In this document: positions 7,574 through 61,748 of the stretch, piece after piece
How positions within the stretch are numbered: the stretch's first letter is position 1
How the letters are laid out: each line of letters starts with the position of its first letter
IMG/VR virus record: IMGVR_UViG_3300017917_003893
Coordinates: 64,001-128,000 of that record
From: a virus
DNA length: 64,000 nt
Strand: one strand, 5' to 3'
Notes under the pieces: generated by a model
What the model saw: the letters and a program-made list of their open reading frames with translations, nothing else
The model's database searches: none
What the model was told of the DNA's origin: nothing
Translations under genes and position numbers: made by a program

Positions 7574-7780
7574 ATGAGTTATCCCTTACCAAATCAAAAA
7601 TATAATCATTATAAAGGTGGTACATATGAAGTTATTTCTATGGCTACTCATACTGAAACAGGAGAAAAGTTGGTAGTTTATAAATCTATCAACTTTGGCT
7701 CTGTTTATGTTAGACCTTACGACCTGTGGTCTGAAACTTTAGAAGGCGGTCAAAAAAGATTTGAACTAATAAATGAATAA
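7574..7780 (+). CDS. DUF1653 family protein
   Basis: YNHYKGGTYEV..ATHTETGEKLVVYKS..VYVRP..RFE. Confidence 0.85.
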   Translation: MSYPLPNQKYNHYKGGTYEVISMATHTETGEKLVVYKSINFGSVYVRPYDLWSETLEGGQKRFELINE

Positions 7781-8513
7781 TATTATAAAAGATTTCAAAC
7801 AAAGAGGTGATATTATTAAAATTTATGATTGGATGAAAATTAATAAGAATCTAAATAATTTTGATAAGAAACAAGTTTCTATGAAAAATAATTCAGGCAT
7901 TGGTACTGCTTTTAATATAGATGTTACAAGCATTGTTACTAGTACACTTATCAATGAATTAAATCAAGATTTAATTAGAACTATTTTGAAATCAATGTTT
8001 AATACTCAAAATTTTGATTATTTAGATTTAAGACCAGATGGTTCTCTAATGACTGGTAGAGTTCATCTTGAGAGGTTAGTACAAATGATTTATCAAAGCG
8101 GTTATAAAAATGTTATCACAACTGGCATGATAGCTTCTGAACTTATGGATAGTGCTTACTTTTTATCCAATGGGTTTAAAAATGCTAGTATGAGTGCTAC
8201 TTCAACATTTTATAATTCAGGTAGTTTAAATGGTGTTAAAGTTTGGGTTGATCCATATATGAAATTTAACGATGGTAGATTATGTCTGTTCAATGAGGTT
8301 GATATCAACATTGAAGACGTTGACTTAGTTGAATTTATTGACCCAGTTGATGCACAGTCCACATTCAAGATTCAGTATAAATCCGACTTTATTGTAAATG
8401 ACTCTAAATTAATATTTGTAATTGAGAATGAAAACTCCGAGGCATATATTCAATATAAGTCGTTACAAAGAGATATAAAAATAGATAATATTTTAGATGG
8501 CAAATCTTTCTAA
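7773..8513 (+). CDS. Truncated major-capsid paralogue with C-terminal RDIKIDNIL peptide
   Basis: TLINELNQDL, NVITTGMIASELMD and GVKVWVDPYMKFNDGRL align with the capsid segments ILVNELSQTI, YLITNGGLAAALQD and DISIYVDPYMKYNDNRI. Confidence 0.8.
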   Translation: MNNIIKDFKQRGDIIKIYDWMKINKNLNNFDKKQVSMKNNSGIGTAFNIDVTSIVTSTLINELNQDLIRTILKSMFNTQNFDYLDLRPDGSLMTGRVHLERLVQMIYQSGYKNVITTGMIASELMDSAYFLSNGFKNASMSATSTFYNSGSLNGVKVWVDPYMKFNDGRLCLFNEVDINIEDVDLVEFIDPVDAQSTFKIQYKSDFIVNDSKLIFVIENENSEAYIQYKSLQRDIKIDNILDGKSF

Positions 8514-8715
8514 TACATTTCAAATAAATAGTACCTGTGGTTCAAGTGCTTTAACGATTGATTCTGATGGTAATACGGTTGTAAATAAGCTGGTTCTTTT
8601 GGATGAAAAAACAGGAAATAAATGGGAAGTTAAAATATCGCATGGTGAACTAGTGGTTGAGCCTTTAGAATTAGAAGATAAAAGAGAATTTAAATTAAAT
8701 AAAATATTGAAATGA
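8497..8715 (+). CDS. Small hypothetical protein ending KREFKLNKILK
   Basis: ORF overlaps both neighbours and carries the shared peptide. Confidence 0.65.
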   Translation: MANLSNTFQINSTCGSSALTIDSDGNTVVNKLVLLDEKTGNKWEVKISHGELVVEPLELEDKREFKLNKILK

Positions 8716-9257
8716 AATACACAGTCTCAGTTTATGGCTATGGAGCCGAAGTAACTATTGGTTCTGTTAATGAAGAATTAAAACAGATACTAAGTAATCC
8801 AGAAAAAGAGTTGATAGATATTGTCACTGAAGATATTGAAGATTTTGGTAGTTGGTATGAAATAGATGACCAATATCACAAATGGAGTGCCGCTGGAAAT
8901 TTTACAATTTTAGTTGAAGATGAAAATGGAAACGAAGTTTGTAAAATAGATTCAGAAAATATGCACAAACATGATACAGATAATTTTGAATTAGTAGAAT
9001 ATGATTGTATAGAAGTTGATGATTCTAAAGATTTGTTAATGTGTGTAGCCTATGAAAAAGGTTCATTTTTTGAAGGAGATATTGAAACTGATAGATTTGA
9101 AATATCAAAGTTAAAAATTAAAATAGATGGTGAGATAGGTATTGAAGAATGTTACTTTGGTGATATTATATCTGGTATCTATTATGATGATGAAGAAGTT
9201 GATAACTATGGTGGTGGTACCGATGGTAAATCATTTGAAGTTTATAAGAACTTTTAA
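8712..9257 (+). CDS. Hypothetical acidic phage protein
   Basis: 181-aa ORF coupled by atga; followed by a terminator. Confidence 0.7.
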   Translation: MKYTVSVYGYGAEVTIGSVNEELKQILSNPEKELIDIVTEDIEDFGSWYEIDDQYHKWSAAGNFTILVEDENGNEVCKIDSENMHKHDTDNFELVEYDCIEVDDSKDLLMCVAYEKGSFFEGDIETDRFEISKLKIKIDGEIGIEECYFGDIISGIYYDDEEVDNYGGGTDGKSFEVYKNF

Positions 9258-9261
9258 AAAG

Positions 9262-9292
9262 AAAAAACCTCAGAGAAATCTGAGGTTTTTTT
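9262..9292. terminator. Bidirectional intrinsic terminator
   Basis: A-run, cctcaga-gaaa-tctgagg, T-run, between convergent genes. Confidence 0.85.
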
Positions 9293-9299
9293 ATTTATT

Positions 9300-9764
9300 T
9301 TACTCTTCAGTATATATTTTAGCTGAGAACTTTGGTGACTTATAATCAACATCAGTTGTGTTTGTAACACAACTATCATCATCAGCCTCACCACTCTTTA
9401 CTATTCTCAAAGCCTCCTGCTCATTTTTTGCTTCTATGATATATTCACGATATGCTCTTACTGGATAATCAATAGTTACTATATAAGTTTCATTGCTTGA
9501 TTGACCTTCATTAGTGCCTTCTAATTCTTCAATTGCATCAATTTTATCTTCAATCTCAGCAGGACTTAAATCATCCATCTTACGAGTTACTTTATTGAAT
9601 TTATATCTTGAGTTAGCAAAATTCTTTTGATACTCATCAGAATTAGGCTTATTTTGTCTATTCATTTTCTTTAGTTCATCTTTCTCAGAATCTGCTGAGA
9701 AATCCTTAAAGTTTACTACTTTTCTATTTACATTGAATGTAGGTTGATTATCTTTATAAGTCAT
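9300..9764 (-). CDS. Hypothetical protein
   Basis: 154-aa ORF with an AATATATA motif upstream on the minus strand. Confidence 0.7.
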   Translation of the reverse strand: MTYKDNQPTFNVNRKVVNFKDFSADSEKDELKKMNRQNKPNSDEYQKNFANSRYKFNKVTRKMDDLSPAEIEDKIDAIEELEGTNEGQSSNETYIVTIDYPVRAYREYIIEAKNEQEALRIVKSGEADDDSCVTNTTDVDYKSPKFSAKIYTEE

Positions 9765-9872
9765 TTTATAGAATTACTTTTTTGTATATATTAAATTCAA
9801 TATTTCATTTATTTTATTTCAGAGACCTGGTTTTTTATATATACTTATGATGAAAACAAAAATCAAAAAGTA

Positions 9873-11219
9873 ATGTATAATAAAGACATGAGTAAGTTAA
9901 TAACACTAAATGGTAATAATGACCAAGAATTATTGAGTTCTATATTCGACAATGAAATAGTAGTATTTGAAGATGTACAAGGCTCAAAGATATGGGTTAA
10001 TTGGGATGGTAAAGAGTTTACTATAAAACCTAAATCAATGAATAGCGATCCTATAAATTTAATTGATTTGGCTATGCAAAACTATTATAATCCAGCAATT
10101 ATTTTTTTTAATTCACTTGATGTTAGAGTTAAGTCTTTATTGAATAAAAAATGGTGGTTTTGTTTTGAATATTTTCCTGATAATCAACCAGCTAATATTG
10201 AGTACTCTAGAGTTCCAAAAAATAATTTAGTTTTAATTACAGTTAATAAATCTGGAAAATATGATTTTGGTGTTGATGAACTAGATGAATATGCTAGACT
10301 TTTTGATGTGGATATGTTGCCTATTGTTTTTCAAGGTAAATTGACCGAAAGAATGATAGAGGCAATTAGATATTTTATAAACACAAGTGAAGAGGATTTA
10401 GAATATGTTTTTGGTGAAAAATCATTTGCTTTTTTCTTTTATAAAATATTGAATCCTAGTTCAAAGAATTCATTTTTAATGGAAACTGATGATTTTCAAA
10501 ACAATGTAGAAAAATTAATAGTTAGAACTGCTAAAGGTGATATTTCATTTGAAATATTAAATCCTTTATATAAAAGAATAAGTGATAATAATTCAACAGA
10601 ATTTGTTGAGATATACACTTTAATTCTAGTTAATTTCTTGAATTTCTGTCAATCATTTAACTTAGAAGAAATTAAGTTAAAGGGTGATAAAAGAGATGAG
10701 GTTTATATTTATTTAATGTCTAAGTTATTTAATGTTTATGTATCTGAGGTTAAGCAAGATTTATTAGACTTTGAATTTATAGTTCCTGAATTTTTCGACA
10801 AAGAGAAGTTTAAGATTAATATTGAATTAATACCAAATAAATTAACTAAAGACTATATTAAAGAATCAGATAAATTAGAATATATTTTCAAAGTTATTTT
10901 AGGCTCATTTAATAAAAAAAGAAAGAAGCCAATTGGTGTATTTACAGAAAATACAGTTATTCTTTTCAATGGATTTGTAACTGATATTAATAATTATATT
11001 GATAAATATTTAAATAAATTACACGAAGTTGAGTTAACAAGAGCTGGTCTTTTAGACTTTGGTGATTTCTTTGAAATTCAATATGATACAGACGGTGAAG
11101 GTGAAGTTTATCCAGATGTTTATACTGAATTTGAAAAAGGAGTTCCTTCTGATAAGAAGAAAAAAGGAAAAGGTGGTAAAATGTTACCAGTTGAAGAAAC
11201 GCCTAAATCTCCTAAATAA
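9873..11219 (+). CDS. RNA ligase-like nucleotidyltransferase-fold protein, apparently lacking the catalytic Lys
   Basis: VVFEDVQGS at the position of motif I (normally EKxDG), FCFEY (motif III), PIVFQG, and VEKLIVR (motif IV-like). Confidence 0.5.
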   Translation: MYNKDMSKLITLNGNNDQELLSSIFDNEIVVFEDVQGSKIWVNWDGKEFTIKPKSMNSDPINLIDLAMQNYYNPAIIFFNSLDVRVKSLLNKKWWFCFEYFPDNQPANIEYSRVPKNNLVLITVNKSGKYDFGVDELDEYARLFDVDMLPIVFQGKLTERMIEAIRYFINTSEEDLEYVFGEKSFAFFFYKILNPSSKNSFLMETDDFQNNVEKLIVRTAKGDISFEILNPLYKRISDNNSTEFVEIYTLILVNFLNFCQSFNLEEIKLKGDKRDEVYIYLMSKLFNVYVSEVKQDLLDFEFIVPEFFDKEKFKINIELIPNKLTKDYIKESDKLEYIFKVILGSFNKKRKKPIGVFTENTVILFNGFVTDINNYIDKYLNKLHEVELTRAGLLDFGDFFEIQYDTDGEGEVYPDVYTEFEKGVPSDKKKKGKGGKMLPVEETPKSPK

Positions 11220-11419
11220 TGAAATCTGTTAATCTTAATATAAAATCTGTCGAGGTAAAAGCAAGTGTAAGACCACTTAGAACTAAGTGGACTCGTGAAA
11301 TGGTCAATGATATACAAAGCCTTAGTGATATGGATTTAAGTTCTTTTGAGAGATATTTTACAAAAGAGTTAAGAAGAGAAAATAGGAAAAATTCTATAAA
11401 TAAAATCTTTAAAAAATAA
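11219..11419 (+). CDS. Mini-protein: gp23-family capsid fragment plus RKNSINKIF peptide
   Basis: IKSVEVKASVRPLRTKWTREMVNDI resembles the gp23-family segment IEK.TV.AKSR.LKA.[YW]T.ELAQDL. Confidence 0.6.
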   Translation: MKSVNLNIKSVEVKASVRPLRTKWTREMVNDIQSLSDMDLSSFERYFTKELRRENRKNSINKIFKK

Positions 11420-11450
11420 AAACATAGAACCGTTTTCGAGGTATAATTGT

Positions 11451-12689: not shown

Positions 12690-12713
12690 GAATAAATTTA
12701 AAATATATAAGAT

Positions 12714-12866
12714 ATGAAAATGTTCTATTTAACCGTTAACGGAAACAAGAAAGATGTTATATCTAAGGTCATGACAGAGACATTAGAACAAGCAGTTGTT
12801 TACTTCTCGGAAATTAAAAATCTGTCAATTGATGCTCTACTAAAAATCTATACCATTACTGAATAA
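12714..12866 (+). CDS. Small hypothetical protein (50 aa, not in ORF track)
   Basis: MKMFYLTVNGNKKD...IYTITE*; AATATATA directly upstream. Confidence 0.6.
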   Translation: MKMFYLTVNGNKKDVISKVMTETLEQAVVYFSEIKNLSIDALLKIYTITE

Positions 12867-12894: not shown

Positions 12895-13434
12895 ATGATT
12901 GGATTAGAACATCAAAATGCAACCTTCATCTTACTATCTTCAAAAAGACTTGAAGATATGATTTCTATACTTTATGCTAAAGAATATACAGTTGTGCCAA
13001 TAAAGGGTTACTACAGAGGTCAGTTTGAAGACTCTGTTATGGCTTATGGTATGGTTGATAATGATACTTTAAGAAAAGATGTACTTTTTCTACTTAATCA
13101 TTTTGATGAAGAGTGTGCTATAATAAAATATCAAGGAGAATCTAATGCTAAAAAGATATTTAAAGATGGTTCTGAAAAACCACTTGGTATAGTTATGTAC
13201 AATACAGATGCTGACAATATGTCTTATCTATACAATGGTACTTCATTCTCATTCGTAGAGTCTAAGAGATATTGGAAGCCAACTAAGAAAGAAGATTTTA
13301 GAGTAGGTATGTTAGTTGAATACTTCAACAATAATAAATGGTATGAAAAACTTGTTGAGAATCCTAACGATGAATATGAAAAACTTTATAAGTTACTTAT
13401 AAAGTATGATAAAGTTAGAGTTGCTTCTAAATAA
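12895..13434 (+). CDS. Hypothetical protein
   Basis: 179-aa ORF behind AATATATA. Confidence 0.7.
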   Translation: MIGLEHQNATFILLSSKRLEDMISILYAKEYTVVPIKGYYRGQFEDSVMAYGMVDNDTLRKDVLFLLNHFDEECAIIKYQGESNAKKIFKDGSEKPLGIVMYNTDADNMSYLYNGTSFSFVESKRYWKPTKKEDFRVGMLVEYFNNNKWYEKLVENPNDEYEKLYKLLIKYDKVRVASK

Positions 13435-14221
13435 TTTCAAACCAATTTATTATTTTATGCCAATTTGGTGTTTCTTTTAAGAAGTATCTCATATCATTTG
13501 GACAATTTATTACATTCAATCCGTTTTCAGTTTTTTGAACATTTCTCATCATAATAATCTTATTTGATTTAATATAAGGAGAAGTTATAACATTTATTCC
13601 GTTAATATTTCCAGTTACAACACCGTTATTACTAGACACAATCATTCCATTAGATAATAGAAGATATTTATAAGCATCTAAACCAACTATAATTGTATTA
13701 GCTGGTCCGGTTCTACCTGATGATGCTATTAAGCTACTAACCATCATTATTCTAGTTATCACTCTTCTCGATAAAGCTATTTCGTTTTCAGAATCTGTTA
13801 AGTTAGAATCTTTTTGATAAATAACATTTAGATTTTGAGGAACACCCATTGGGTTTGATGTTAGTGTCTCTAATGTTTTCATAATATCTGTATAGATATC
13901 TGTTAAATCTAAATAGGTTTTACCTTGAACATTAATAGAATTTATTTTAGGAGAAATAACTGACATATAACCTTCATTATCCAAAGGGTTTGAAAATGTT
14001 TCTCTGTTCTTGAACTCTTCTACTTTACCATCAACGATAGCGTCAATAGCAAGATCTCTATTCTTTCTTTTTAATTCTCTTTGATATTCTTCGTTTGGTT
14101 CTTCAATCCAATCCATATATGTCATTACAACTTGAGGTAAAGAAGGTTTGGTAGATTCTACATAATTACAGATAGCAATTAAGTCATTATTAGAAATTAT
14201 CATATTTATTCTTCCATCCAA
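13427..14221 (-). CDS. Internally deleted major-capsid paralogue with RDLAIDAIV peptide
   Basis: YMSVISPKINSINV matches capsid YAGVIGPKISSKSV. LSRRVITRIMMVSSLIASSGRTGPANTII matches VQRKLITKIAHASNFIATEGRVGPAQYLI. Confidence 0.8.
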   Translation of the reverse strand: MDGRINMIISNNDLIAICNYVESTKPSLPQVVMTYMDWIEEPNEEYQRELKRKNRDLAIDAIVDGKVEEFKNRETFSNPLDNEGYMSVISPKINSINVQGKTYLDLTDIYTDIMKTLETLTSNPMGVPQNLNVIYQKDSNLTDSENEIALSRRVITRIMMVSSLIASSGRTGPANTIIVGLDAYKYLLLSNGMIVSSNNGVVTGNINGINVITSPYIKSNKIIMMRNVQKTENGLNVINCPNDMRYFLKETPNWHKIINWFEII

Positions 14222-19160: not shown

Positions 19161-19562
19161 ATGAGAAAAAAGATAGGAAGAACTGAAATTATATCATTAC
19201 CTGATTTTGGAATATTCGGGTTATCAGCAAAAGTTGACACCGGGGCCTATGGTGTAGCTTTACATGTTGATACTATAAAAATAGATAATGATAAGCTTTA
19301 CTTTACTATTGATAATAAAGAGTTTATATATGACAAGTTTAAAATGGTGTCCGTTAAAAGTTCTTTTGGTAAAGTTCAAAAAAGATTTTCTATTATGACT
19401 AAAATATTAATCGGTGACAAGATATATAAATTTTATGTATCTTTGACCAATAGAAAGAACATGAGATATCCTATTCTAATAGGTAGAAGATTTTTGTATA
19501 AATTTGACTATTTAGTAGATGTTAAGAAAAAGAATATAAATGATACAGTTAAAAAGATGTAA
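19161..19562 (+). CDS. RimK-associated retropepsin-like putative protease (DUF785-type)
   Basis: Motifs IGRTE, AKVDTGA and LTNRKNMRYPILIGRRFL. Confidence 0.8.
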   Translation: MRKKIGRTEIISLPDFGIFGLSAKVDTGAYGVALHVDTIKIDNDKLYFTIDNKEFIYDKFKMVSVKSSFGKVQKRFSIMTKILIGDKIYKFYVSLTNRKNMRYPILIGRRFLYKFDYLVDVKKKNINDTVKKM

Positions 19563-20079
19563 TTATATTACGGGTGATCCAAATGAATTAGGATTTGCTG
19601 TTTCTGATATCGTTAAGTTTCTTGAAACTGATGGTAGAAATGCTCTATTGTTTACTCCACCAAGAGCTACAACTGAAGATAAAAAAGGAGTTTCTACATC
19701 TATAAAATATATTTTTAGTAATCAATTCACTTTTGATAATTTTAATCAGTTTTCAGAGATAATTGCCAATAGGTCTAATTTATTTAGAGTTGATTTATTA
19801 GTCTTTGATTTTTATCACCTTTCTCCTTGGCAAATTTCTGATTATAAGAAATTAATAGATGAATTAAATATAGACCATATTATAATAGCCAAAGAATATC
19901 ATTACAAAACTTCTGATGATGTTAATGATTTTCGTGTTAGAAGAGAATACAAAGACCTAAATAAAAGTGAAACTCACATAACTGATAATATAAATAAGTG
20001 GACTTCTACACTTAAATCTTTATCTGTATCTTATATAAGAGATAAAAAAATCGACAATATATTTGGTAGTGATGAATAG
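19540..20079 (+). CDS. Degenerate P-loop/RecA-fold-like protein ending IRDKKIDNIF
   Basis: Remnant ITGDP and VDLLVFD segments; carries the shared peptide. Confidence 0.55.
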   Translation: MIQLKRCNYITGDPNELGFAVSDIVKFLETDGRNALLFTPPRATTEDKKGVSTSIKYIFSNQFTFDNFNQFSEIIANRSNLFRVDLLVFDFYHLSPWQISDYKKLIDELNIDHIIIAKEYHYKTSDDVNDFRVRREYKDLNKSETHITDNINKWTSTLKSLSVSYIRDKKIDNIFGSDE

Positions 20080-20121: not shown

Positions 20122-21222
20122 ATGAGAATTAGAAGAAAGTTTCTACAACTTACACGGTATACATATCCTTATGGTACCGAATCATTCCTTAAATCATACT
20201 TACCTGAAGGTATTAAAAAAGACCAATATGGTAACTATTACTATGTTATTGGTGATAAACCAACAACAATGTTTACCTGTCACTTAGATACGGCTTGTGG
20301 TAAACAAGATAAGGTTAAACACGTTATTAATAATAACATAATTAAGACAGATGGTAAAACTATACTTGGTGCTGATGATAAGGCAGGTATGGTTGTTTTG
20401 CTTTATATGATTGAAAATAAAATACCTGGACTATATTATTTCTTTATTGGTGAAGAAGTTGGTTGTATAGGTTCTGGTAATTTATCATCTACTTGGGCTG
20501 ATACTGAATTTAGTTATTATGTATCAAAAGTTGTTTCATTTGACAGAAGAAGTACTTGTTCTGTTATCACTCATCAATGGTATGGTCGTTGTTGCTCTAA
20601 TGAATTTGCTGAAGAATTGTCAAGTAGACTAAATGGTGCTGGTTTTAATCTTAAATTAAAGCCAGATGATACTGGTGTTCTAACAGATTCTGCTCAATTT
20701 ATGGATATTGTTCCAGAGTGTACAAATATATCAGTTGGTTACAATTATGAACACACAACATCTGAATATCAAGATATTGATTATTTAAGTAGACTATGTA
20801 AGTCAGTGTGTTTAATTGACTGGGAAACACTTCCTGTTGAAAGAGATCCCTATGAAGAATCTATTTTTAGTGATTCACCAGGTTGGGATGATGATATTAA
20901 TCACTCAAATGATTCTGAATTTGTAGAAGATTTCTATTCTTATTTTTCAGTAGATGGTGAGACTAAAAAGATGTATATTTCCAAGGATGTGATTACTAAA
21001 GAAATTGAATTAATTACTGATTGGCTCAAATCACAAGATGGATATAGTGATGTTTCAACTATTAACTGGAATGGAAATACTCTTTATGTCGATAGTGAGT
21101 CCGGTGGTTATAATTTTATAGGTAGTCGAACTGATATTATGGAGTTTATTACTGAATTATGTTCAGTTTCCAATTCAAAAGTAACTGATAAAATTAAGAC
21201 CAAGAAGAATATGGTTTTTTAA
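20122..21222 (+). CDS. M28/M20-family zinc peptidase, paralogue of 3127..4533
   Basis: Motifs TYPYGTE, CHLDT, LGADDKAG, GEEVG, SFDRR and ECTNISVGY. Confidence 0.85.
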   Translation: MRIRRKFLQLTRYTYPYGTESFLKSYLPEGIKKDQYGNYYYVIGDKPTTMFTCHLDTACGKQDKVKHVINNNIIKTDGKTILGADDKAGMVVLLYMIENKIPGLYYFFIGEEVGCIGSGNLSSTWADTEFSYYVSKVVSFDRRSTCSVITHQWYGRCCSNEFAEELSSRLNGAGFNLKLKPDDTGVLTDSAQFMDIVPECTNISVGYNYEHTTSEYQDIDYLSRLCKSVCLIDWETLPVERDPYEESIFSDSPGWDDDINHSNDSEFVEDFYSYFSVDGETKKMYISKDVITKEIELITDWLKSQDGYSDVSTINWNGNTLYVDSESGGYNFIGSRTDIMEFITELCSVSNSKVTDKIKTKKNMVF

Positions 21223-21859: not shown

Positions 21860-22333
21860 ATGTTAGAAATGAAAGGTATATTAGAATTTGACCCAGTTAA
21901 CGTAACTAGGAAGCACTTAGCACAGTCTTCTTGGAAGAGAACTGCTATGGTTCGTTTTGATTGTGACCTTTGGGCATACTACGCTTGGTTTATTGAAAGA
22001 CGATTCAACTTAAAGTTAAATAAACCTTTAAGAGGAACTCACTTGACTGTCATCAATGATAGATTTGAAAGTGATGAGCTTTACGCACAAGCCCGTCAAT
22101 TATTTCACGGTAAAGAAATTACTGTAAAATATGATCCTACTCTTATTCGTGCTAATAATAAAGGTCACTGGTGGATAAATGCGGATAGTGATGATGCTAG
22201 AAATATCAGAAGTGTTATTGGATTAGATCCTAATCCTTACTTTGGCTACCACATCACTATTGGTTTGGCTACTCACTTACAATTAGAACACTCTAAATAC
22301 ATCTTAGACCAATGTATAAGATTCAATCTTTAA
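21860..22333 (+). CDS. 2H phosphoesterase superfamily protein
   Basis: Two HxT motifs, HLTVI and HITIG, about 70 aa apart. Confidence 0.75.
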   Translation: MLEMKGILEFDPVNVTRKHLAQSSWKRTAMVRFDCDLWAYYAWFIERRFNLKLNKPLRGTHLTVINDRFESDELYAQARQLFHGKEITVKYDPTLIRANNKGHWWINADSDDARNIRSVIGLDPNPYFGYHITIGLATHLQLEHSKYILDQCIRFNL

Positions 22334-22803
22334 TAGACCATATTGAGAAAGTATATGGATTTGAAATTGTCCCTTGTTCAATACCAAGGGGCAATTTTCA
22401 ATATTTTAAAAGATATATCTACCTATTTATACTTCATAAAGTAAGTGAAAAGTTATTTTACTTTTTAAGAGATAAAGTCTCACCTATTAAATATTTAGAT
22501 GAAAGACCGGATAAAGAACTTTGGTTTCGTAAAAGAAACTCAGAGGGTAGAGTATCTATTGAAGTTGAAATAAGACCAGTTCCTGTTGAAGCTTGTATTT
22601 ATTTAAGTCATGATTCTGGTTTATTTAAGACTATGGATGAAAACTATAAAGTTAAAATATATTGTCAACTTAGTGATGTTGAACATATATCATTTCCATT
22701 AAATCACATCAACGGTAATGAACAGATTGATTATTACTTTTCTAAAATTAATGAACTTAAAGAAGAGTTGAGAAATTATAAATTAAATAATATTTTAAAG
22801 TGA
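22312..22803 (+). CDS. Hypothetical protein ending LRNYKLNNILK
   Basis: ORF carrying the shared peptide. Confidence 0.65.
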   Translation: MYKIQSLIDHIEKVYGFEIVPCSIPRGNFQYFKRYIYLFILHKVSEKLFYFLRDKVSPIKYLDERPDKELWFRKRNSEGRVSIEVEIRPVPVEACIYLSHDSGLFKTMDENYKVKIYCQLSDVEHISFPLNHINGNEQIDYYFSKINELKEELRNYKLNNILK

Positions 22804-24251: not shown

Positions 24252-24734
24252 GTGTTTGATTTAAATTTTAATACTATACATGGTGATGATAAAACTGGTA
24301 GAACTAGATTTCTACTAGAGTTATCGTCTATTTTAAAATCATATGGTTTTAAAATATTCTTTTTAGGATGTACAAGTGAATTTGAAAACGCAAAAAGAAG
24401 TGGTGATTTATCTTCTTTTGATGACTTTAGAATAATATCAACAAGTGATGATTTTAATAATCTAAAAATAATTGAAGTTATAAATGAAATAACTGATACA
24501 AAAAGTTATGATTATCTAATAGTAGATGATATTGATTATTTATCAGATAACTGTATAAATTCAATAATTAAAACAAAAGTTAAAAAAGTTATTACTTGTT
24601 TAAGTGATAATAAAAAAAGATTACCAGAAAGTTCAACATTTTATAATATCACTGATATTAAAGATATGACTAAGATTAATGATTATATTAAAACTTTAGT
24701 CAGAGACCAAAAAATTAATTCTATACTTAAATGA
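24252..24734 (+). CDS. Small P-loop-like protein ending VRDQKINSILK
   Basis: Walker A-like GDDKTGRT and Walker B-like YLIVDD; carries the shared peptide. Confidence 0.6.
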   Translation: MFDLNFNTIHGDDKTGRTRFLLELSSILKSYGFKIFFLGCTSEFENAKRSGDLSSFDDFRIISTSDDFNNLKIIEVINEITDTKSYDYLIVDDIDYLSDNCINSIIKTKVKKVITCLSDNKKRLPESSTFYNITDIKDMTKINDYIKTLVRDQKINSILK

Positions 24735-27055: not shown

Positions 27056-28582
27056 ATGTTAGTTGAAACACAATATTTAACAAATAGTAAGAAATTAGTA
27101 GTTAGTTACGTTGATAAAACCGGTGATATAAAGCTTAAATATTATAATTGGGATAATCCAATGAAGTATGTTGCTTGTGAGGACAACGATCCTCAAAGAC
27201 ACCCTGAATTTAGATCTTGGGATGGTAAATCAGTTAAACAAGTTGAAGTTAATCAACCTGATAGATATGCTATCTATGAATTCTTAGATGGCTTACCAGA
27301 ATCTGAAAAAAATGAAATATTTGAATTTAATCTACCTAAGATTTACTTTATAGATATCGAGACTGAAATCGTTGATGGTTTCCCTGAGGCGGCTGATGTT
27401 AAAGACCAAGATGGTAATATAACTAAAGAAGGAGCTTCAACACAAGTTCTTTCTATCTCTATTGTTTATGATGATAAAATCATTCTACTTGGTTTGAAAG
27501 AAATGCCTCAAGATATGCAGGATAGAATTATTACAAATACTAATAAGTATTTTGAGAAGTTCGGAACTGAATACAAGTTTAAGTATATTAAGTATGATGA
27601 TGAGTTTGATATGCTTTATGCTTTCTTCTATAAGATGATTCCTAAGATGCCAATTTTAACTGGTTGGAACTTCTTACAATATGACTGGTTGTATTTAGTA
27701 AATCGTTCTAGAAAGATTTCTAAGTGGGTAAATGGTAGAGAGTATAGAATTGATCCTGCTGTTTCATCTTTAACAAAAAGAATGAATAAGATTTGGTCAA
27801 CAGACTTTGAAGTTCCAGCACATAGAATGATTTTTGACTATATGCAACTTTATGAAATCTGTGATACTTCTATCAAAGTAAAAGAATCTTCATCATTAGA
27901 CTTCGTATCTAATAAATTAGTTGGTGTTGAAAAGATTAAGTATAATGGATCTTTACAAAAGTTATATGAAGATGATTTTGAGACATTTATGTACTATAAC
28001 GCAGTCGATAGTGTTCTTGTTCAAAAGATACACGATGCTCGTAACTACATTTCAATTATCTATGCGATTTCATCACTTGCTCAGATTAGAATCATTGACG
28101 TTGTTTCTCAAATGAATAATGCGTTAGGTTCCTTGGCTATTACAGAAGGTGTTTTAAGAAACAGATTTCGTAAGATGGACAATATTGTTCTATTCCGAGA
28201 TGAGCGAGGAGATGCAGAATCTACAATTGCAGGTGGTTGGGTAAAAGACCCTGTAGTTGGTATGAATCAGTGGTGTGTTACTTATGACTTTGCTTCACTT
28301 TATCCAACAACACAAAGACAATTCTTTATAGCACCTGAAACTTTTGTAGGTGTTCAAGATGAAAAAGATAAGTCTAAATGTACAAATGGTAGACCTATTG
28401 ATTTAGATAAACATGTTTTATGTGTAAATGGTGTAGTATTTGAAAAAAGAAAGTCACCAACGCTTAATATGCTTGAGGATGTTTATGCTGATAGAAAAAA
28501 AGCAAAGAAAGTGATGATGCAAAAGAAAGAAGACTTAAAAAAAGTTCTTGATGAGATTAAACAATTAGAGGCAGAAATATAA
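27056..28582 (+). CDS. Family-B DNA polymerase N-terminal subunit (split gp43A-like)
   Basis: Exonuclease motifs DIETE, GWNFLQYD and YNAVD, plus motif A YDFASLYP. It ends in the fingers helix (ADRKKAKK) with no motif B or DTDS. Confidence 0.88.
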   Translation: MLVETQYLTNSKKLVVSYVDKTGDIKLKYYNWDNPMKYVACEDNDPQRHPEFRSWDGKSVKQVEVNQPDRYAIYEFLDGLPESEKNEIFEFNLPKIYFIDIETEIVDGFPEAADVKDQDGNITKEGASTQVLSISIVYDDKIILLGLKEMPQDMQDRIITNTNKYFEKFGTEYKFKYIKYDDEFDMLYAFFYKMIPKMPILTGWNFLQYDWLYLVNRSRKISKWVNGREYRIDPAVSSLTKRMNKIWSTDFEVPAHRMIFDYMQLYEICDTSIKVKESSSLDFVSNKLVGVEKIKYNGSLQKLYEDDFETFMYYNAVDSVLVQKIHDARNYISIIYAISSLAQIRIIDVVSQMNNALGSLAITEGVLRNRFRKMDNIVLFRDERGDAESTIAGGWVKDPVVGMNQWCVTYDFASLYPTTQRQFFIAPETFVGVQDEKDKSKCTNGRPIDLDKHVLCVNGVVFEKRKSPTLNMLEDVYADRKKAKKVMMQKKEDLKKVLDEIKQLEAEI

Positions 28583-31814: not shown

Positions 31815-33482
31815 ATGTCTCTAAAAAAAGATCTTGCTAAATATAAGCCCCGTAAAGAACAAAGAGAAGCTCTCGATTTTATAGAAAGTGAGTATCTAAA
31901 GAATAAAATGAACAAGTTTTTTTTATTAAATCTTCCAGTTGGAAGTGGAAAATCACACTTAGCATTAATGATTGCTGACTGGTATAAAAAGAATGTTAAT
32001 AAAACTGCAAAAGTAGATATAATCACTAATAGTAAAATATTACAAGACCAGTATTCTGGTACTTATGAGTCAATTAGTGATTTAAAGGGAAAAGAAAATT
32101 ACGAATGTGAACAATATTCTTGTTCTTGTGCTCAAGGTGCTGAGTTTAATAGATTAAATAAAACATCTTGTGAAAGTTGTCCTTATACCTATGCTAAGGA
32201 GTCTTTTATTAGTGGTGGTATTTCTTTAACTAACTTTTATCTTTATATACTTTATGCTATCTATAATCAAAAACTACTTGAGAGTAGAGATTCTAGAGTT
32301 TTAATAGTTGATGAGGCTCATGAGTTTGATGATGTAATGTCTGACTTTATTACTATTAAAATAACTGAAGGTATAGTGAAGAAGTATAAATTTTCAAATG
32401 AGTATGAGATAATGAAACAGTTAAAATCTGTTACAACAATATCTCAGTACGTTGATTTTTTAAGATTTCTTAACGGTGAAGTTATATCTACAATTGAAGA
32501 TATGGAGAAAGGTTTGTCTAAATCACCAAGAAATGTTAGACAAGACAAACGTGATTTAAAAATTAATAAAATTATTGGTGGTAAAAACTCAGATGTTAAG
32601 ACAATGCAGTTAGCAACCGATTTAAGACAATTACAATTAAAGATTGAAGTTTTTTTAAAAGAGTATAAAGATAATCCAAACAACTGGGTTCTTGAGTCTT
32701 CCTATAATGAAAAGGCTAAACAAAAAGAGCTATCACTTGAGCCAATATGGGCATATGATTACTTAGATAAATATGTATTTAGTAACTATGATATGGTTAT
32801 AATGATGTCGGGTACTATTTTAGATAAAAATCTATTTTGTCAGTTAAATGGCTTAGATGTTACTAAAGCAGTTTACTATTCAATAAGAAGTCCTTTCTCA
32901 TTAAAGAATAGACCTATTTACTATATGCCACTTGGTAAGATGTCCTATAAGTCAAAAGACGAGACATTTAAGAGATATATTCCTTACATAAAAAAACTAC
33001 TTGATAAGTATAAAAATAAGAAAGGTATAATACATACTAACTCTTTTGAACTAGCTAAATGGATTCAAGAATCAATTAAAGATCCAAGATTAATTTTTCA
33101 TGATTCTCAGAATAAAGATGAGATGTTAAAGATGCATAAAGATTCGGAAGAGCCAACAGTAATAGTTAGTCCTTCTATGGACACTGGAGTTTCATTTGAT
33201 AATGATGATGCTAGATTTCAAATAATAGCTAAAGTTCCTTATCCAAGTTTAGCATCTCAGAAAAATAAACTTAGACAGTCTAATAATCCTGATTGGTATT
33301 CTTGGAAAACAGTTGCTGGTTTAGTTCAAATGACTGGTAGACCTGTTAGATCTGAAATTGACTATGCTGATACTATTATACTAGATGGTTCTTTTGGTGA
33401 TGTTATTAAACATAGTTCACAATTTATTCCAGATTGGATTCAAGAGGCTATTAAAAAAGTTAATGTTAAAATTGAGGCATAA
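31815..33482 (+). CDS. DinG/Rad3-like SF2 helicase
   Basis: Q motif, PVGSGKS, Cys cluster, DEAH, MSGT, GVSF, KVPYP and QMTGRPVR. Confidence 0.88.
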   Translation: MSLKKDLAKYKPRKEQREALDFIESEYLKNKMNKFFLLNLPVGSGKSHLALMIADWYKKNVNKTAKVDIITNSKILQDQYSGTYESISDLKGKENYECEQYSCSCAQGAEFNRLNKTSCESCPYTYAKESFISGGISLTNFYLYILYAIYNQKLLESRDSRVLIVDEAHEFDDVMSDFITIKITEGIVKKYKFSNEYEIMKQLKSVTTISQYVDFLRFLNGEVISTIEDMEKGLSKSPRNVRQDKRDLKINKIIGGKNSDVKTMQLATDLRQLQLKIEVFLKEYKDNPNNWVLESSYNEKAKQKELSLEPIWAYDYLDKYVFSNYDMVIMMSGTILDKNLFCQLNGLDVTKAVYYSIRSPFSLKNRPIYYMPLGKMSYKSKDETFKRYIPYIKKLLDKYKNKKGIIHTNSFELAKWIQESIKDPRLIFHDSQNKDEMLKMHKDSEEPTVIVSPSMDTGVSFDNDDARFQIIAKVPYPSLASQKNKLRQSNNPDWYSWKTVAGLVQMTGRPVRSEIDYADTIILDGSFGDVIKHSSQFIPDWIQEAIKKVNVKIEA

Positions 33483-51706: not shown

Positions 51707-51841
51707 ATGTCTGTTTGGGAAAATATACCTCTCATTGATAGAGAATCTATAAAAAAATCTTTGTATAGATTGAATAGAATTCAAAGTAGGAAAAATAAAA
51801 TTAATAGTATATTTAATGAAGTTAGGAAAGAAGTCAAGTAA
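51707..51841 (+). CDS. 44-aa mini-protein carrying SRKNKINSIF (not in ORF track)
   Basis: MSVWENIPLIDRESIKKSLYRLNRIQSRKNKINSIFNEVRKEVK*. Confidence 0.55.
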   Translation: MSVWENIPLIDRESIKKSLYRLNRIQSRKNKINSIFNEVRKEVK

Positions 51842-52085
51842 TTTAGAACCTGGTTATGTTTTTGCTCCTTATATTCCAGTGACTTCATCACAAGTAATAG
51901 TTGATTACAGTTCTTCTAAAAGAGTTAACAGAAAAAGAAAGATTAATAACATATTTGATTTGGGTTTAGATATTAAAGATTATGATATATTCTCACCAAG
52001 TAAATCAATTATGAGTAGATATTCTAAAAAGATTATAAATGCTAATTATTACGGAACTATAGAAATAAAAAAACCCACTTATTAA
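51816..52085 (+). CDS. Mini-protein: gp23-family C-terminal fragment with RKRKINNIF peptide inserted
   Basis: EPGYVFAPYIP and FSPSKSIMSRYSKK..YYGTIEIK match the capsid segments PGIIFVPY and FAPRMLLRSRY..YMTIKVK. Confidence 0.7.
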   Translation: MKLGKKSSNLEPGYVFAPYIPVTSSQVIVDYSSSKRVNRKRKINNIFDLGLDIKDYDIFSPSKSIMSRYSKKIINANYYGTIEIKKPTY

Positions 52086-53100: not shown

Positions 53101-54208
53101 TTTGTATATCTGATTTTATTTTTGCAATTTTTTTCTTCATGTAAGTTCCATTTTGATTAAATTGTTTACCCCAATAATCTATGAATTGTTTACAACTCAT
53201 TTTCTTTAAAGTATTAATTGATATTATAGGTTCACCTTTCTGTTCTTTTAACTCTTTCTCATAAACAGAAACCCACATATCTTTTAATCTATCAGCAACA
53301 TCATCAGGACTATCATTGTCAACTAATAGTGCGTTTCCTAAATCTTTCCAATTGTGAGATGATATTTCATTTATCAATGATACATAAAAAGAATCAGCAT
53401 CAAAGTTTTGCATTTCACTAGCCGTTCTGTATATCTTAAAACTACTTAAATCTTTTTCAGGATATTTTCTTATAAAATAGTGTATTTCTTGTATGTTTGC
53501 ATTTAGTTCTTGAGCCTCACTTATGTATATATACCTAAGAAATTCATCACTCCATTTATACCATATTGATTTTGGAAATTTCCATATATTATTTTCAGCA
53601 TAAGTTAAAGCTGTGTTAAAAGATCTACCATATATGGGTTTTCTATATTCACCTCTTTTAGGTGACCTAATAGTTCTTTTATAATGCTCGTAGCAATGAT
53701 TTAACTCATGATATAGTGTTGACCTTATACCATCTAGTAATTCTTTTTTGTTACTTGGATTATTAATATCAAAATTATTTTTATCTACATCAATACCTAC
53801 GCTTAATTGTATAATTAAACCAACATCTGCTATTTTTCTCATTGGTTTTACAATTTTAGAATAGTTTTTCCAATTTTTATTTCCAAATCCTGAGGCATAT
53901 CCACCTATTGCGACATGGTCGGGATAGTCATACAAACTATTAAACTTTCTTTCTGTCATTTTTTTGAATTCAAGTATTAACTCAAATCCAACTACAGGAA
54001 AGTCTGCATATTTTTGTTTATCTATAAATGGCGCTAATTGTCTATATTTTATATTTAATGTCTCATCTAATGATTTTTCAGATGATTCTAAGAATTCTAT
54101 AAATTTATAATAAGTTTTCTTATCAAGTAGATCTACAAACATGATACTTGATTCTGAGAGACCTTGTCTTTCATTTATTAGAAACTGTTTAAAATTAAAA
54201 ATCCCCAT
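53084..54208 (-). CDS. Putative zincin metallopeptidase
   Basis: LYHELNH (HExxH) with downstream QELNA; N-terminus MGIFNFKQFLINE. Confidence 0.6.
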   Translation of the reverse strand: MGIFNFKQFLINERQGLSESSIMFVDLLDKKTYYKFIEFLESSEKSLDETLNIKYRQLAPFIDKQKYADFPVVGFELILEFKKMTERKFNSLYDYPDHVAIGGYASGFGNKNWKNYSKIVKPMRKIADVGLIIQLSVGIDVDKNNFDINNPSNKKELLDGIRSTLYHELNHCYEHYKRTIRSPKRGEYRKPIYGRSFNTALTYAENNIWKFPKSIWYKWSDEFLRYIYISEAQELNANIQEIHYFIRKYPEKDLSSFKIYRTASEMQNFDADSFYVSLINEISSHNWKDLGNALLVDNDSPDDVADRLKDMWVSVYEKELKEQKGEPIISINTLKKMSCKQFIDYWGKQFNQNGTYMKKKIAKIKSDIQNEKIY

Positions 54209-54236
54209 AGACTATATATAAAAATCTATGGGGATT
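54200..54236 (-). promoter_or_regulatory. Hairpin/terminator enclosing a late-promoter motif and the start codon of 53084..54208
   Basis: 12-bp inverted repeat aatccccataga/tctatggggatt with TATATATA in the loop. Confidence 0.6.
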
Positions 54237-54251
54237 AATTTTACTTAATGT

Positions 54252-54680
54252 TTAATTTAATATCTCGTTTATTTGATTTTCTCTTAGTGATTGTAAATCA
54301 ATATCAGTTTCAACAGCTTCATAGAAGCTCATTCTAACCATTTTGTAATACTTTTCACATTCTTCTTCATTAGCCATAGGATGTAGTTTGTTTTCGTAAT
54401 TATCCCATCTGTTTTTTGATTCTGGCTTGCCGTATTTGGCTATTAATGATTCATTAAACTCTTCATATTCACTTACATCAACATTTAAAGAATCTTCTAA
54501 ATCATATGAATATTCTGATAGTGAACACTCTTTATATTCTTTTATGTTTAATTCATATACTTTTTTTTCAGCTTCTTGTTTTGTGAATACAATTAAGCTA
54601 GGACTACCACCTTCTGTTTCACTGTAGATGTTATCATCATACTCAAATCCTTTTTTTAAAATTACAAATCCTTTTTTCAT
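54252..54680 (-). CDS. Hypothetical protein ending LRENQINEILN
   Basis: ORF carrying the shared peptide. Confidence 0.7.
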   Translation of the reverse strand: MKKGFVILKKGFEYDDNIYSETEGGSPSLIVFTKQEAEKKVYELNIKEYKECSLSEYSYDLEDSLNVDVSEYEEFNESLIAKYGKPESKNRWDNYENKLHPMANEEECEKYYKMVRMSFYEAVETDIDLQSLRENQINEILN

Positions 54681-57181: not shown

Positions 57182-57190
57182 TTAATAAAA

Positions 57191-59143: not shown

Positions 59144-59156
59144 AAATATTAAAAAT

Positions 59157-60227: not shown

Positions 60228-60234
60228 TTCATGT

Positions 60235-60636
60235 CTACCACCTCTTAGTTGTGTCTTTTGGAGTGTGTCCTATTTTAGATATTACTAATTCGTAGTATGC
60301 GTCAGTTTGTCCAAAGTCTGATGCATATACATATAAGTTAAATTCTTTAAGATGTTCATTTACATCATTAATCAATTCAAATATCTTTGGTTCAACATAA
60401 TGTAAAACGGGCATATCACTTGGAAAATCTATGCCTTTTTCCATAAATTCAATAATAAAACAATTATCATCTTTTTCAATTAAAGATGATTGTAAAGAGT
60501 CTTCTACATAATAATCTAAATTAGGAAACTCATCAGTGATATGATAAAGTATCTCAGTTAAATCTTGATATGATATACCAAAATCATTTTGTAGAGAGAA
60601 TCTTTCTGTTATAAATTGATTGTATTTTTTAATCAT
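60235..60636 (-). CDS. Putative internal protein
   Basis: Start reassigned to MIKKYNQFITE, which is close to the T4 IP capsid-targeting sequence. Confidence 0.65.
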   Translation of the reverse strand: MIKKYNQFITERFSLQNDFGISYQDLTEILYHITDEFPNLDYYVEDSLQSSLIEKDDNCFIIEFMEKGIDFPSDMPVLHYVEPKIFELINDVNEHLKEFNLYVYASDFGQTDAYYELVISKIGHTPKDTTKRW

Positions 60637-60746
60637 TACATCATTCTTAATGTTTGTATAAATGCTACTTTTATTCTTATCCAAGCTCTTTTCTTCCAAG
60701 GTAAAGATTTGAATTCTTCTGTTAAAAAAATATCTTCTAGTTCCAT
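60636..60746 (-). CDS. 36-aa mini-protein (not in ORF track)
   Basis: MELEDIFLTEEFKSLPWKKRAWIRIKVAFIQTLRMM*; directly behind AATATATA and coupled by taatg to the next gene. Confidence 0.55.
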   Translation of the reverse strand: MELEDIFLTEEFKSLPWKKRAWIRIKVAFIQTLRMM

Positions 60747-60763
60747 AATTTCTATATATTAAT

Positions 60764-60794
60764 TTTGACATTATAAGTATTTTCCTTATTTTTG
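60764..60794 (+). promoter_or_regulatory. Bacteroidota-type sigma70 promoter
   Basis: TTTG-N19-TATTTTTG. Confidence 0.55.
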
Positions 60795-60813
60795 TATAAA
60801 TAATCACTACAAA

Positions 60814-61266
60814 ATGGAAGGTCGTAAGTTAAAAAATTCAGATGCTCTTAAATTTATGTTTGCTGGTAAATCTATTTTTACTTTTGTAAACACACAATCT
60901 GGTAATCGTTTTACTTTTAAAATTAAAGCCGCAAAGGATTCTAATTTATTCTTTGTTAGTGTATTAACTAATCCTGATACTTATACTTATATTGGTACTT
61001 GTATTGAAGGTAACTTCAAACATGGTCGTAAATCAAGTGTTTCTCAAGACGCTCAATCAGTAAAAGTATTTCAATATGTTTTGGCTAAATTAAAACTAGG
61101 TACTTTACCTGATTTTATTGAAGTTTGGCACGAGGGTCACTGCGGTAAATGTGGAAGACGTTTAACAGTTCCTTCTTCTATTGAAAATGGCTTGGGTCCT
61201 GAGTGTATTAAAACTTTGTCTAAGTCAGAAAAGCGTGATAAATTTTTAGAACTAATATTAGCATAA
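60814..61266 (+). CDS. DUF6011-like zinc-finger protein
   Basis: CGKCGRRLTVPSSIENGLGPEC; ends KRDKFLELILA. Confidence 0.75.
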   Translation: MEGRKLKNSDALKFMFAGKSIFTFVNTQSGNRFTFKIKAAKDSNLFFVSVLTNPDTYTYIGTCIEGNFKHGRKSSVSQDAQSVKVFQYVLAKLKLGTLPDFIEVWHEGHCGKCGRRLTVPSSIENGLGPECIKTLSKSEKRDKFLELILA

Positions 61267-61748
61267 TGCAATCGATAGTCAGTATTTTATTTTCCTTATT
61301 ACCATTTATTTTTATCTCATATTACTTTTTTAATGTGAGAAAGACAAAGTATATTTCACTTGACTTAAAAACTGGACAAAGATGTTATTCTTGTAAAGAC
61401 AAAATAGAAATAGACCAAGTTGATTTACTTGATATACTTTTAAAAGAAAAAAAGAACTATCGTCTTTGTCATGCTTGTCAACGTGAAGAAAAGCTCGATG
61501 GCTTAATTAATAAAAATAAATCGTCTATCTTACATAAGTTTAATCTTAAACTTATCGATGAAAGATTTGATAAGACATCAAAAATTTTATTAACCTCTAT
61601 TGTTTTCTTATTAATTGTAGATCTTACATTAAAGATTGTATTTGGTATTAAGTGGTTTTCATATTGTTATAATATATTTTTGGCACTTTATTGGTGTTTT
61701 ATGATTTATAGACACAAGTTAATATCAATAAAAAAACCCTCAGAATAA
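61266..61748 (+). CDS. Membrane protein with CxxC..CxxC
   Basis: Three hydrophobic segments, CYSC and CHAC, and an internal QREEKLDGLI. Confidence 0.65.
   Translation: MQSIVSILFSLLPFIFISYYFFNVRKTKYISLDLKTGQRCYSCKDKIEIDQVDLLDILLKEKKNYRLCHACQREEKLDGLINKNKSSILHKFNLKLIDERFDKTSKILLTSIVFLLIVDLTLKIVFGIKWFSYCYNIFLALYWCFMIYRHKLISIKKPSE

Follow-up and report, generated by a model that had tools for sequence, protein, structure and literature searches.

A recurrent, mostly C-terminal peptide on many unrelated proteins of a huge phage is a candidate docking label

Why would a phage place the same short peptide at the ends of many small proteins that share little else? This question is raised by a 64,000-nucleotide stretch of viral DNA (hereafter the window), which corresponds to bases 64001-128000 of the 143-kb IMG/VR contig IMGVR_UViG_3300017917_003893. 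A first reading of its letters (hereafter the original prediction) had listed twelve proteins carrying a peptide of the form R-[DEKN]-x-[KQ]-[IL]-[DN]-x-[IL]-[LF], here called the tag, and had proposed that it docks a variable set of cargo domains on one hub. The window has a GC content of 29% and the contig a CheckV completeness of ~25%. The window DNA is ~75% identical to that of two uncultured phages, LR745206 and LR756502 (635-642 kb), with both of which gene order is also conserved. We therefore followed the tag in the contig (174 genes, crudely called) and in LR745206 (961 genes, also crudely called, 94% coding), as well as in more distant huge phages.

The peptide is present far beyond chance. 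The strict motif occurs ten times among the 174 contig genes, eight of these at no more than ten residues from the C-terminal end, against 0.037 occurrences in total and 0.0015 near the C-terminal end in whole-protein shuffles, the null model put forward in the original prediction; the reversed motif has no match in the same genes. A shuffle confined to the last 20 residues, so that tag composition is preserved, gave 8 strict matches observed versus 0.005 expected in the contig and 31 versus 0.03 in LR745206, with 14 versus 0.047 and 84 of 961 proteins versus 0.47, respectively, for a relaxed motif. In the same test, the first 20 residues held no match and the middle 20 held two. Over entire LR745206 proteins the relaxed motif has 103 matches (3.0 in shuffles), 84 of them at most ten residues from the end (0.19 in shuffles), which bears out the mostly C-terminal placement that had been claimed. 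A broader pattern retrieves 105-117 carriers in this genome, ~11% of its genes, and the tagged share of the proteins in this megaphage lineage is ~9-11%. The full tag spans ~13 residues, [K]-[SQ]-x-[IL]-R-[DEN]-x-K-[IL]-[NDK]-x-[IL]-[LIF], and is followed by a tail of 0-9 residues, most commonly one, in which polar or acidic residues predominate and D, E, N, and K are frequent. Outside the nine core positions, information is confined to positions -4 to -1 (K, S/Q, x, I/L), with none further upstream. When one position was freed at a time, Arg was found in 60 of 62 cases and was never replaced by Lys, and Lys occupied +3 in 60 of 83. The carriers of the window are the following, the two doubtful ones last (aa, amino acids):

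7773-8513, plus strand: p1, 246 aa, capsid-protein copy with a compact HK97 fold; tag RDIKIDNIL at 8469-8495, with five residues between it and the stop
8497-8715, plus strand: p2, 72 aa, small beta domain; tag REFKLNKIL at 8683-8709, one residue before the stop
11219-11419, plus strand: p3, 66 aa, capsid-protein fragment (strand and spine helix); terminal RK...IF tag RKNSINKIF at 11384-11410
13427-14221, minus strand: p4, 264 aa, second capsid-protein copy; tag-like helix RDLAIDAIV near the N-terminus, at 14033-14059
19540-20079, plus strand: p5, 179 aa, orphan; tag RDKKIDNIF at 20038-20064
22312-22803, plus strand: p6, 163 aa, orphan; tag RNYKLNNIL at 22771-22797, with one residue between it and the stop
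24252-24734, plus strand: p7, 160 aa, degenerate P-loop-like body; tag RDQKINSIL at 24702-24728
31815-33482, plus strand: XPD/DinG-like helicase (Pfam); internal tag copy RDLKINKII in a variable segment, at 32550-32576
51707-51841, plus strand: microprotein of 44 aa; RK...IF tag RKNKINSIF at 51788-51814
51816-52085, plus strand: 89 aa, copy of the C-terminal end of the capsid protein; RKRKINNIF inserted at 51930-51956
54252-54680, minus strand: 142 aa, acidic orphan; tag RENQINEIL at 54258-54284, with one residue between it and the stop
60814-61266, plus strand: DUF6011 protein ending in a doubtful RDKFLELIL at 61234-61260, with Phe in place of the near-invariant Lys
61266-61748, plus strand: membrane protein with a doubtful internal REEKLDGLI at 61482-61508, after a zinc-ribbon-like CxxC

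Ten of the twelve proteins listed originally thus stand as carriers. The DUF6011 protein and the membrane protein are doubtful: no LR745206 homologue was found for the former, and the LR745206 orthologue of the latter is only half conserved at this place, keeping R-D-E-K-I-N and having lost the hydrophobic pair. In p4 and in the carrier at 51816-52085 the peptide is internal and not C-terminal. The twelve positions originally given mark the starts of the carrier genes and not the peptides, which lie at the other, mostly C-terminal, ends of these genes. The list had missed the internal copy in the helicase and seven carriers located just past the window end. For p5 we obtained no family matches, and a protein atlas search returned hypothetical proteins only, with scores below 0.8. 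The body of p7 has weak AAA_24 and Sak4 matches; an IMG/VR search using exact peptide seeds retrieved no relative of this protein, which is too divergent for such seeds, and tblastn gave one partial match.

Conservation of the tag takes place at the protein level, as had been proposed. Synonymous codon use at the tag positions of the 84 C-terminal LR745206 carriers equals that of the genome (Arg is encoded by AGA in 65, AGG in 12, and CGN, including CGT, in 7), which implies that it is the amino acid sequence that is conserved; in addition, the DNA varies among copies, the flanks are unrelated, and the stop codons are a mix of TAA, TGA, and TAG. A DNA-level signal can be rejected on codon usage and the unrelated flanks. 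An alternative genetic code can be rejected too, as the stops are mixed and the following genes start normally. The sole departure in codon use concerns the Ile at +7 in LR745206 (ATA 45 versus 29 expected, p = 7e-5).

The proteins that carry the tag diverge quickly. Identity to the LR745206 and LR756502 orthologues is 30-59% for carriers and 70-85% for neighbouring core genes; relative to LR745206, median identity is 44% for carriers versus 61% for other genes, and a homologue is retained for 50% versus 72%. The tag is nonetheless the best-conserved block in every alignment of carrier orthologues. Only four columns are invariant among 19 IMG/VR orthologues of p1 (21-48% identity), and two of them are R233 and I237 of the tag. 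All 25 IMG/VR orthologues of p2 end in the tag, with R63 invariant. Orthologues of p3 keep RK..I.KI, the motif of p4 is kept in both LR756502 and LR745206, p5 orthologues (45-59% identity) keep RDKKI, the p6 orthologue of LR756502 (48% identity) ends in RDYKLKKLFNE, and p7 orthologues (30-35% identity) keep R..K.N..L. IMG/VR holds 80 loci on contigs whose capsid protein is 70-86% identical to that of the window, with 64 C-terminal tag copies among 1806 genes. Lack of conservation in orthologues had been named among the observations that would speak against the peptide, and the tag is in fact kept in orthologues of as little as 22% identity. The tag is under strong protein-level selection.

Carriers are small and mostly orphan (median 108 aa versus 147 for all LR745206 genes), have bodies slightly more acidic than those of other small proteins, and are spread over the whole LR745206 genome, with denser arrays near both ends. 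BLAST among the LR745206 carriers with the tag masked found only one pair alike and the folds differ (HK97, small beta domain, P-loop-like, helicases), so that a single diverged paralogue family can be rejected. The carriers are in this sense otherwise unrelated, as claimed, but the claim fails for p1, p3, p4, and the carrier at 51816-52085, all of which derive from the capsid protein encoded in the same window:

950-2623, plus strand: true major capsid protein of the Gp23 family, 557 aa (PF07068, 97 bits), source of the truncated tagged copies

BLASTP aligns p1 with residues 330-491 of this protein (E 3e-8), p4 with residues 396-493 (E 3e-5, with a weak Pfam Gp23 match), and the carrier at 51816-52085 with residues 491-525 (Pfam Gp23 positions 308-335); p3 matches Pfam Gp23 with 25.4 bits, above cut-off, at profile positions 132-194. 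All four belong to the Gp23/HK97-fold family by sequence or, for p1, also by fold. Along the same line, an 83-aa carrier of LR745206 copies repeats of a 707-aa protein encoded just upstream of the capsid gene. Two subtypes had been lumped together in the original motif, R-[DEN]-x-K-[IL]-x-x-[IL]-[LIV] and R-K-x-K-I-x-x-I-F; Lys at +1 and Phe at +8 are associated in a single genome (odds ratio 78, p = 4e-8). The second form is found on microproteins (44-83 aa, median 52 aa versus 116 aa for the main form), several of which are head-protein fragments; in the window it is carried by p3 and the 44-aa microprotein, and internally by the protein at 51816-52085. The spine helix of the capsid protein ends in SKQIVAKIF, which resembles this subtype.

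Which phages use this tag? The capsid protein has more distant relatives in LR756504 and LR756501 (54% identity each) and LR756500 (35%), and further ones in Tenacibaculum, Lak/Prevotella, Chryseobacterium, and Flavobacterium jumbo phages. Matches to a degenerate DNA version of the tag were counted per genome, the control being the pattern read backwards:

LR745206: 100 matches, counted locally and without control
LR756504: 27 matches versus 9 in the control
LR756501: 7 matches versus 3 in the control
LR756500: 7 matches versus 9 in the control
Lak-B1: 11 matches versus 7 in the control
PTm1: 1 match versus 1 in the control

By this DNA pattern the tag is at background in Lak-B1, PTm1, and LR756500. 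In LR756504 the LR745206 consensus, R-D-x-K-I-N-x-I-L-x, is shifted to R-K-x-K-I-[ED]-x-L-[LI]-stop, with Lys for Asp at +1, Glu, Asp, or Lys at +5, and Leu for Ile at +7, and approximately half of the tags end exactly at the stop. A broad pattern, applied to the whole genome of this phage, finds 55 carriers, but their true number is probably higher because R...I..L occurs in the last 14 residues of 109 proteins. LR756501, examined over its whole genome (735 kb), has no R-D-x-K-I-type carrier; an unbiased C-terminal gapped-triplet search found there 40 proteins that end in a very uniform DPYGEE[DEN]W followed by 0-3 residues. Many of the genes encoding them lie in same-strand arrays (e.g., 500330-503452 and 552409-555773). 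Six of 104 LR745206 carriers have a homologue in LR756504, and 2-6 of 104 have one in the sister lineages. Tag positions 1 and 5 (i, i+4) covary between lineages, from D/N to K/E. Docking on one common hub, as originally proposed, would predict a consensus that shifts in concert, and such a shift is seen among LR745206, LR756504, and LR756501. Sister lineages have different tags on comparable gene sets, as one would expect of a peptide co-evolving with one reader.

Internal copies complete this picture. They occur in two helicases, the XPD-like one of the window and a UvsW-like one of LR745206. The copy in the XPD-like helicase is found only in the three closest genomes, within a variable segment for which the helicases of LR756504, LR756501, LR756500, Lak-B1, and PTm1 have other sequences and no internal tag. 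The motif therefore arises de novo in tolerant places, like short linear motifs do, and, since this helicase gained an internal copy, a free C-terminus is not required. The tag resembles short linear motifs also in being conserved on diverging, unrelated bodies and in its concerted change between lineages.

The amphipathic helix suggested originally is predicted in two unrelated bodies. An AlphaFold2 (AF2) model of p1 built from 19 orthologues (predicted local distance difference test, pLDDT, 86.6) has a compact HK97 fold, with T4 gp24 and gp23 as best Foldseek matches (TMq 0.54-0.55), and its C-terminal helix 223-241 holds the tag. The AF2 model of p2 combines a beta body (pLDDT 82-90) with a tag helix at residues 62-71 (pLDDT ~55), as expected if the tag is an appended helix that is not packed on the body. 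We favour, with somewhat better than even confidence, the reading in which the tag is a helical docking label bound by one hub. A trans-acting reader would bind the hydrophobic face (I, I/L, L), with the invariant Arg and the Lys flanking that face, and would handle the whole tagged set as a group. The tagged proteins may form a library of cargo; the capsid or scaffold would be the less likely option for the hub.

Looking for candidate readers, we profiled the 961 LR745206 genes, 198 of which have a homologue in LR756504 and 190 in LR756501; 58 have one in LR756504 and not in LR756501. Pfam searches with 30 of these 58 recovered PrkA, an adjacent DUF444/YeaH gene, ClpP, GrpE, and a RimB-like retropepsin. 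The same 30 genes included no obvious peptide-binding scaffold; tRNA synthetases, NUDIX, NAMPT, adenylate kinase, and RNase II/R were also among them, and three proteins (653, 378, and 987 aa) had no Pfam match. PrkA consists of an AAA+ domain and a PrkA C-terminal domain and forms, with DUF444/YeaH, a gene pair at LR745206 480112-483419 that is 65% identical between LR745206 and LR756504. It is reported to be an ATP-dependent protease in Bacillus subtilis (PMC9512850). Among the complete genomes, it occurs in the three that are tagged (LR745206, LR756502, and LR756504) and not in LR756501, LR756500, Lak-B1, or PTm1. In LR745206, as in 8 of 13 IMG/VR contigs of the clade, prkA and the DUF444 gene are separated by a frame of 36-46 aa that ends in an RK...IF tag. 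The RimB-like gene, present in three of three tag-bearing complete genomes versus none of two without the tag, is also found in the window:

19161-19562, plus strand: RimB-like retropepsin-like aspartic protease (NCBIfam E 3e-20, below the family cut-off); the gene end overlaps the start of p5

RimB itself is described in PMC11957791. The PrkA-YeaH pair and the RimB-like protease co-occur with the tag in these sequences and may be regarded as leads, not as findings. LR745206 and LR756504 also encode ClpP (2-3 copies), an Hsp100-type ATPase of ~710 aa, Hsp70, and GrpE, together with several aminoacyl-tRNA synthetase-like proteins, an RNase II/R-like enzyme, and NAMPT/NUDIX genes.

Our best guess for the reader would be a phage-encoded protein-handling machine, namely an AAA+ protease or chaperone such as PrkA-YeaH or the Clp system, with which the RimB-like aspartic protease possibly works. 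This machine would set the turnover or the location of accessory proteins that are biased to early expression, and the truncated head-protein copies among the carriers might serve as adaptors or decoys. In its most extended form, which we consider less likely than not, each megaphage lineage would have a private C-terminal code (R-D-x-K-I-N-x-I-L, R-K-x-K-I-E-x-L-L, or DPYGEExW) by which 4-11% of the proteome, or ~40-120 accessory proteins that evolve fast, would be routed in each genome to one protein-handling machine encoded by the virus (here maybe PrkA-YeaH plus the retropepsin-like protease), with truncated capsid or scaffold copies as adaptors or decoys. Several observations weigh against a dedicated reader of this kind. 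In other lineages, the flanks of ~60 viral loci that encode PrkA (60-71% identical) are free of the tag, and 58 of the 198 genes common to LR745206 and LR756504 (29%) show the phyletic pattern of PrkA and RimB. ClpP, Hsp100, and Hsp70 can be rejected as specific readers, given that their distribution does not follow the tag. The tag helix of p1, which is modelled with high pLDDT, may not be free but packed on the body, the two subtypes in one genome may mean two readers, and a sticky helix common to the carriers might need no dedicated reader to act. Finally, 21 transcription units with carriers look late, and the promoter classes on which the early bias rests (see below) are crude word matches.

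Among the competing explanations, a second loading signal for the head, by which the carriers would dock inside the HK97-fold shell or on the scaffold and so be packaged, has precedents in the encapsulin cargo peptides and the C-terminal helix of the P22 scaffold, which dock on HK97-fold shell interiors. A number of carriers are fragments of either the capsid protein or the repeat protein whose gene immediately precedes the capsid gene, and the RK...IF subtype resembles the end of the capsid spine helix. The phage also has a T4-like N-terminal leader, MKxLKxFExF, that is clearly used on late genes, and the original statement that none of the listed tag carriers has such a capsid-type leader proved correct, with no overlap between the two sets. 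The apparent timing of expression argues against this explanation. In LR745206, the upstream word AATATATA, which resembles a late-promoter word, precedes 178 genes versus 16 expected, and TAnnTTTG, the Bacteroidota-type -7 promoter element, is also strongly enriched upstream, so that the host is probably a member of the Bacteroidota. Using these words as crude promoter classes, the ratio of TAnnTTTG to AATATATA is 27:21 in transcription units with carriers versus 162:343 in the others (odds ratio 2.7, p = 0.0012), whereas the leader-bearing genes, found behind AATATATA only, are 21 late and none early. The capsid or scaffold, suggested originally as one possible hub, is weakened in that role because carrier genes lean to the host-type, early promoters and leader genes are late. 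Moreover, carriers are among the fastest-evolving genes, replication helicases have internal copies, and the capsid proteins of LR756504 and LR756501, both 54% identical to that of the window, go with a variant of the tag in one case and with a wholly different tag in the other. We consider this explanation unlikely.

A self-associating amphipathic helix that glues the carriers into an assembly or condensate would dispense with the reader altogether. Such a helix would fit the predicted secondary structure with its hydrophobic face and charged flanks, the helical hydrophobic moment of the tag, which is larger than its strand moment, the covariation of positions 1 and 5, as in an intrahelical or interhelical salt pair, and the tolerance for internal and N-terminal placement. 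But an invariant Arg that is never Lys, together with a fixed register, points to specific recognition, the tag has only about three turns and a non-heptad spacing, and the non-helical-looking DPYGEExW occupies the same niche in a sister phage, all of which makes simple self-association improbable.

It seems very unlikely to us that the tag binds a sliding clamp in the manner of T4, with K-I-D-N-I-F-G as the motif that brings many clients to the replication clamp. T4 gp43, gp33, and gp55 end in the clamp-binding S/T-L-D-F-L-F/L/Y, and the spacing of the tag (hydrophobic-D/N-x-hydrophobic-F/L, then a short acidic tail) fits that motif; a gp44-like clamp loader is encoded, two DNA helicases have internal copies, and the p7 body is Sak4-like. 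The expected clients are nevertheless devoid of the tag: the C-terminal half of the LR745206 polymerase (130568-131992) ends in VVMDIFGGFK, the UvsX/RecA-like protein (window 62266-63492, minus strand) in DADDIFG, without the Arg or the Lys, and a gp55-like late sigma factor (phrog_234, 121 aa) in GQGLHSL. An equivalent of gp33 was not recognised. The gp45-family models PF02916 and PF09116 had no match in the contig, LR745206, or LR756502, although a divergent clamp may exist since the gp44-like loader is present, and ~100 clients that include capsid fragments are implausible. The DIFG ending shared by the polymerase half and the UvsX-like protein is a better candidate than the tag for contact with a clamp or a single-stranded DNA-binding protein (SSB). 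Encoded at contig 53954-54319, the gp55-like factor shares 95% identity with its LR756502 counterpart and is missing the C-terminal part by which the clamp is contacted in T4.

Even less credence is due to a role during translation, in which the tag, as part of the nascent chain within the ribosome tunnel, would tune termination or provide coupling to an overlapping downstream gene and would do nothing in the finished protein: tags end 0-9 codons before the stop and 62% of carriers overlap the next gene versus 40% of other small genes (with gene starts called crudely), but 17 of 83 carriers have no downstream gene on the same strand, internal and N-terminal copies are conserved, and the pattern is that of an amphipathic helix. 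Similarly, a membrane-targeting helix like the C-terminal ones of MinD or FtsA, which the basic residues of a C-terminal amphipathic helix might suggest, is most doubtful in view of the conserved acidic or amide residues at positions 1 and 5, the invariant Arg, the acidic tails after the tag, and a consensus that shifts by lineage up to the acidic aromatic tag of the sister lineage.

For the docking label that we favour, the nearest published analogies are the tails that bind clamps, degrons together with adaptor tails, the cargo peptides of encapsulins, and the variable-precursor systems of bacteria (PMC7159879). Like the T4 capsid-targeting sequence, the tag is one short peptide used as an address on many unrelated proteins; that sequence is, however, an N-terminal leader cut by the prohead protease, whereas the tag is C-terminal and has no L/I-x-E cleavage context, and it marks a gene set that does not overlap with that of the T4-like leader of this phage and leans early. 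Clamp-binding peptides (those of T4 gp43, gp33, and gp55, QL[SD]LF, and the PIP box) share with it a C-terminal hydrophobic pair after D/N, a tolerated short tail, and many clients, but not the invariant Arg and Lys or the ~100 mostly orphan carriers. Encapsulin cargo peptides and microcompartment encapsulation helices are also terminal peptides on unrelated cargo, and encapsulin shells have the HK97 fold of the capsid protein found here; the GSL-type encapsulin consensus is unrelated to the tag, though, and the carriers are scattered genome-wide, whereas encapsulin cargo is encoded beside an HK97-fold shell gene; nor does the expression bias of the carriers point to the head. Degrons and adaptor tails of AAA+ proteases (ssrA, MuA RRKKAI, and the ClpX-binding tail of SspB) are C-terminal peptides that hand unrelated proteins to one machine, and the tag-bearing phages encode ClpP, an Hsp100 ATPase, and PrkA. 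An ssrA-like degron has a fixed position at the free end, in contrast with tag tails that vary from 0 to 9 residues and with conserved internal copies, and the tag has no sequence match to known degrons. In bacterial peptide-processing systems, small and rapidly diverging precursors have a conserved C-terminal peptide (FxSxx-COOH, RxD, and acidic types) and are tied to a peptidase or AAA+-vWA machine of their own (Kaur et al. 2020, PMC7159879). Their variable, fast-evolving body joined to a conserved C-terminal peptide resembles the tag carriers, but they are single precursors encoded beside the peptidase and not, as here, ~100 carriers scattered over a 600-kb viral genome. A functional analogy for an adaptor library, though without homology, is offered by the C-terminal PRANC (F-box-like) and BC/SOCS-box helices of viral adaptor proteins in eukaryotes, in which a variable body plus a constant helix plugs into one hub, the host ubiquitin ligase. 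Phages are not known to have anything comparable.

Huge phages hold hundreds of orphan genes, and the tag groups about one tenth of them into one class that can be read from sequence. Our literature search found no description of such a tag in huge phages. If its reader were a phage-owned protease or chaperone, large phages would organise their accessory proteome by a private sorting or turnover code, a code that sister lineages appear to have re-invented with different peptides; should this private code be real, it would constitute a virus-owned protein sorting or turnover system of a kind undescribed for phages. The carriers derived from head proteins raise a second question, namely why a phage would keep fast-evolving, labelled mimics of its own shell protein.

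The rest of the window encodes a Dam methylase, glycosyltransferases, XPD-like and DnaB-like helicases, ribonucleotide reductase, Ro60, thymidylate synthase, a RecA/UvsX-like protein, and the N-terminal half of a split family-B DNA polymerase. This polymerase is divided over two distant genes, with the exonuclease and the N-terminal palm half at window 27056-28582 and the remainder at LR745206 130568-131992 (minus strand). A 735-aa gene with a capsid-type leader (28636-30843) is inserted after the first polymerase half and has no counterpart at the same spot in either of the two close relatives. The window also contains two paralogous PepT-like (M20) peptidases that are 52% identical (3127-4533 and 20122-21222, both on the plus strand), of which the one adjacent to the capsid gene has an N-terminal capsid-type leader and the other does not.

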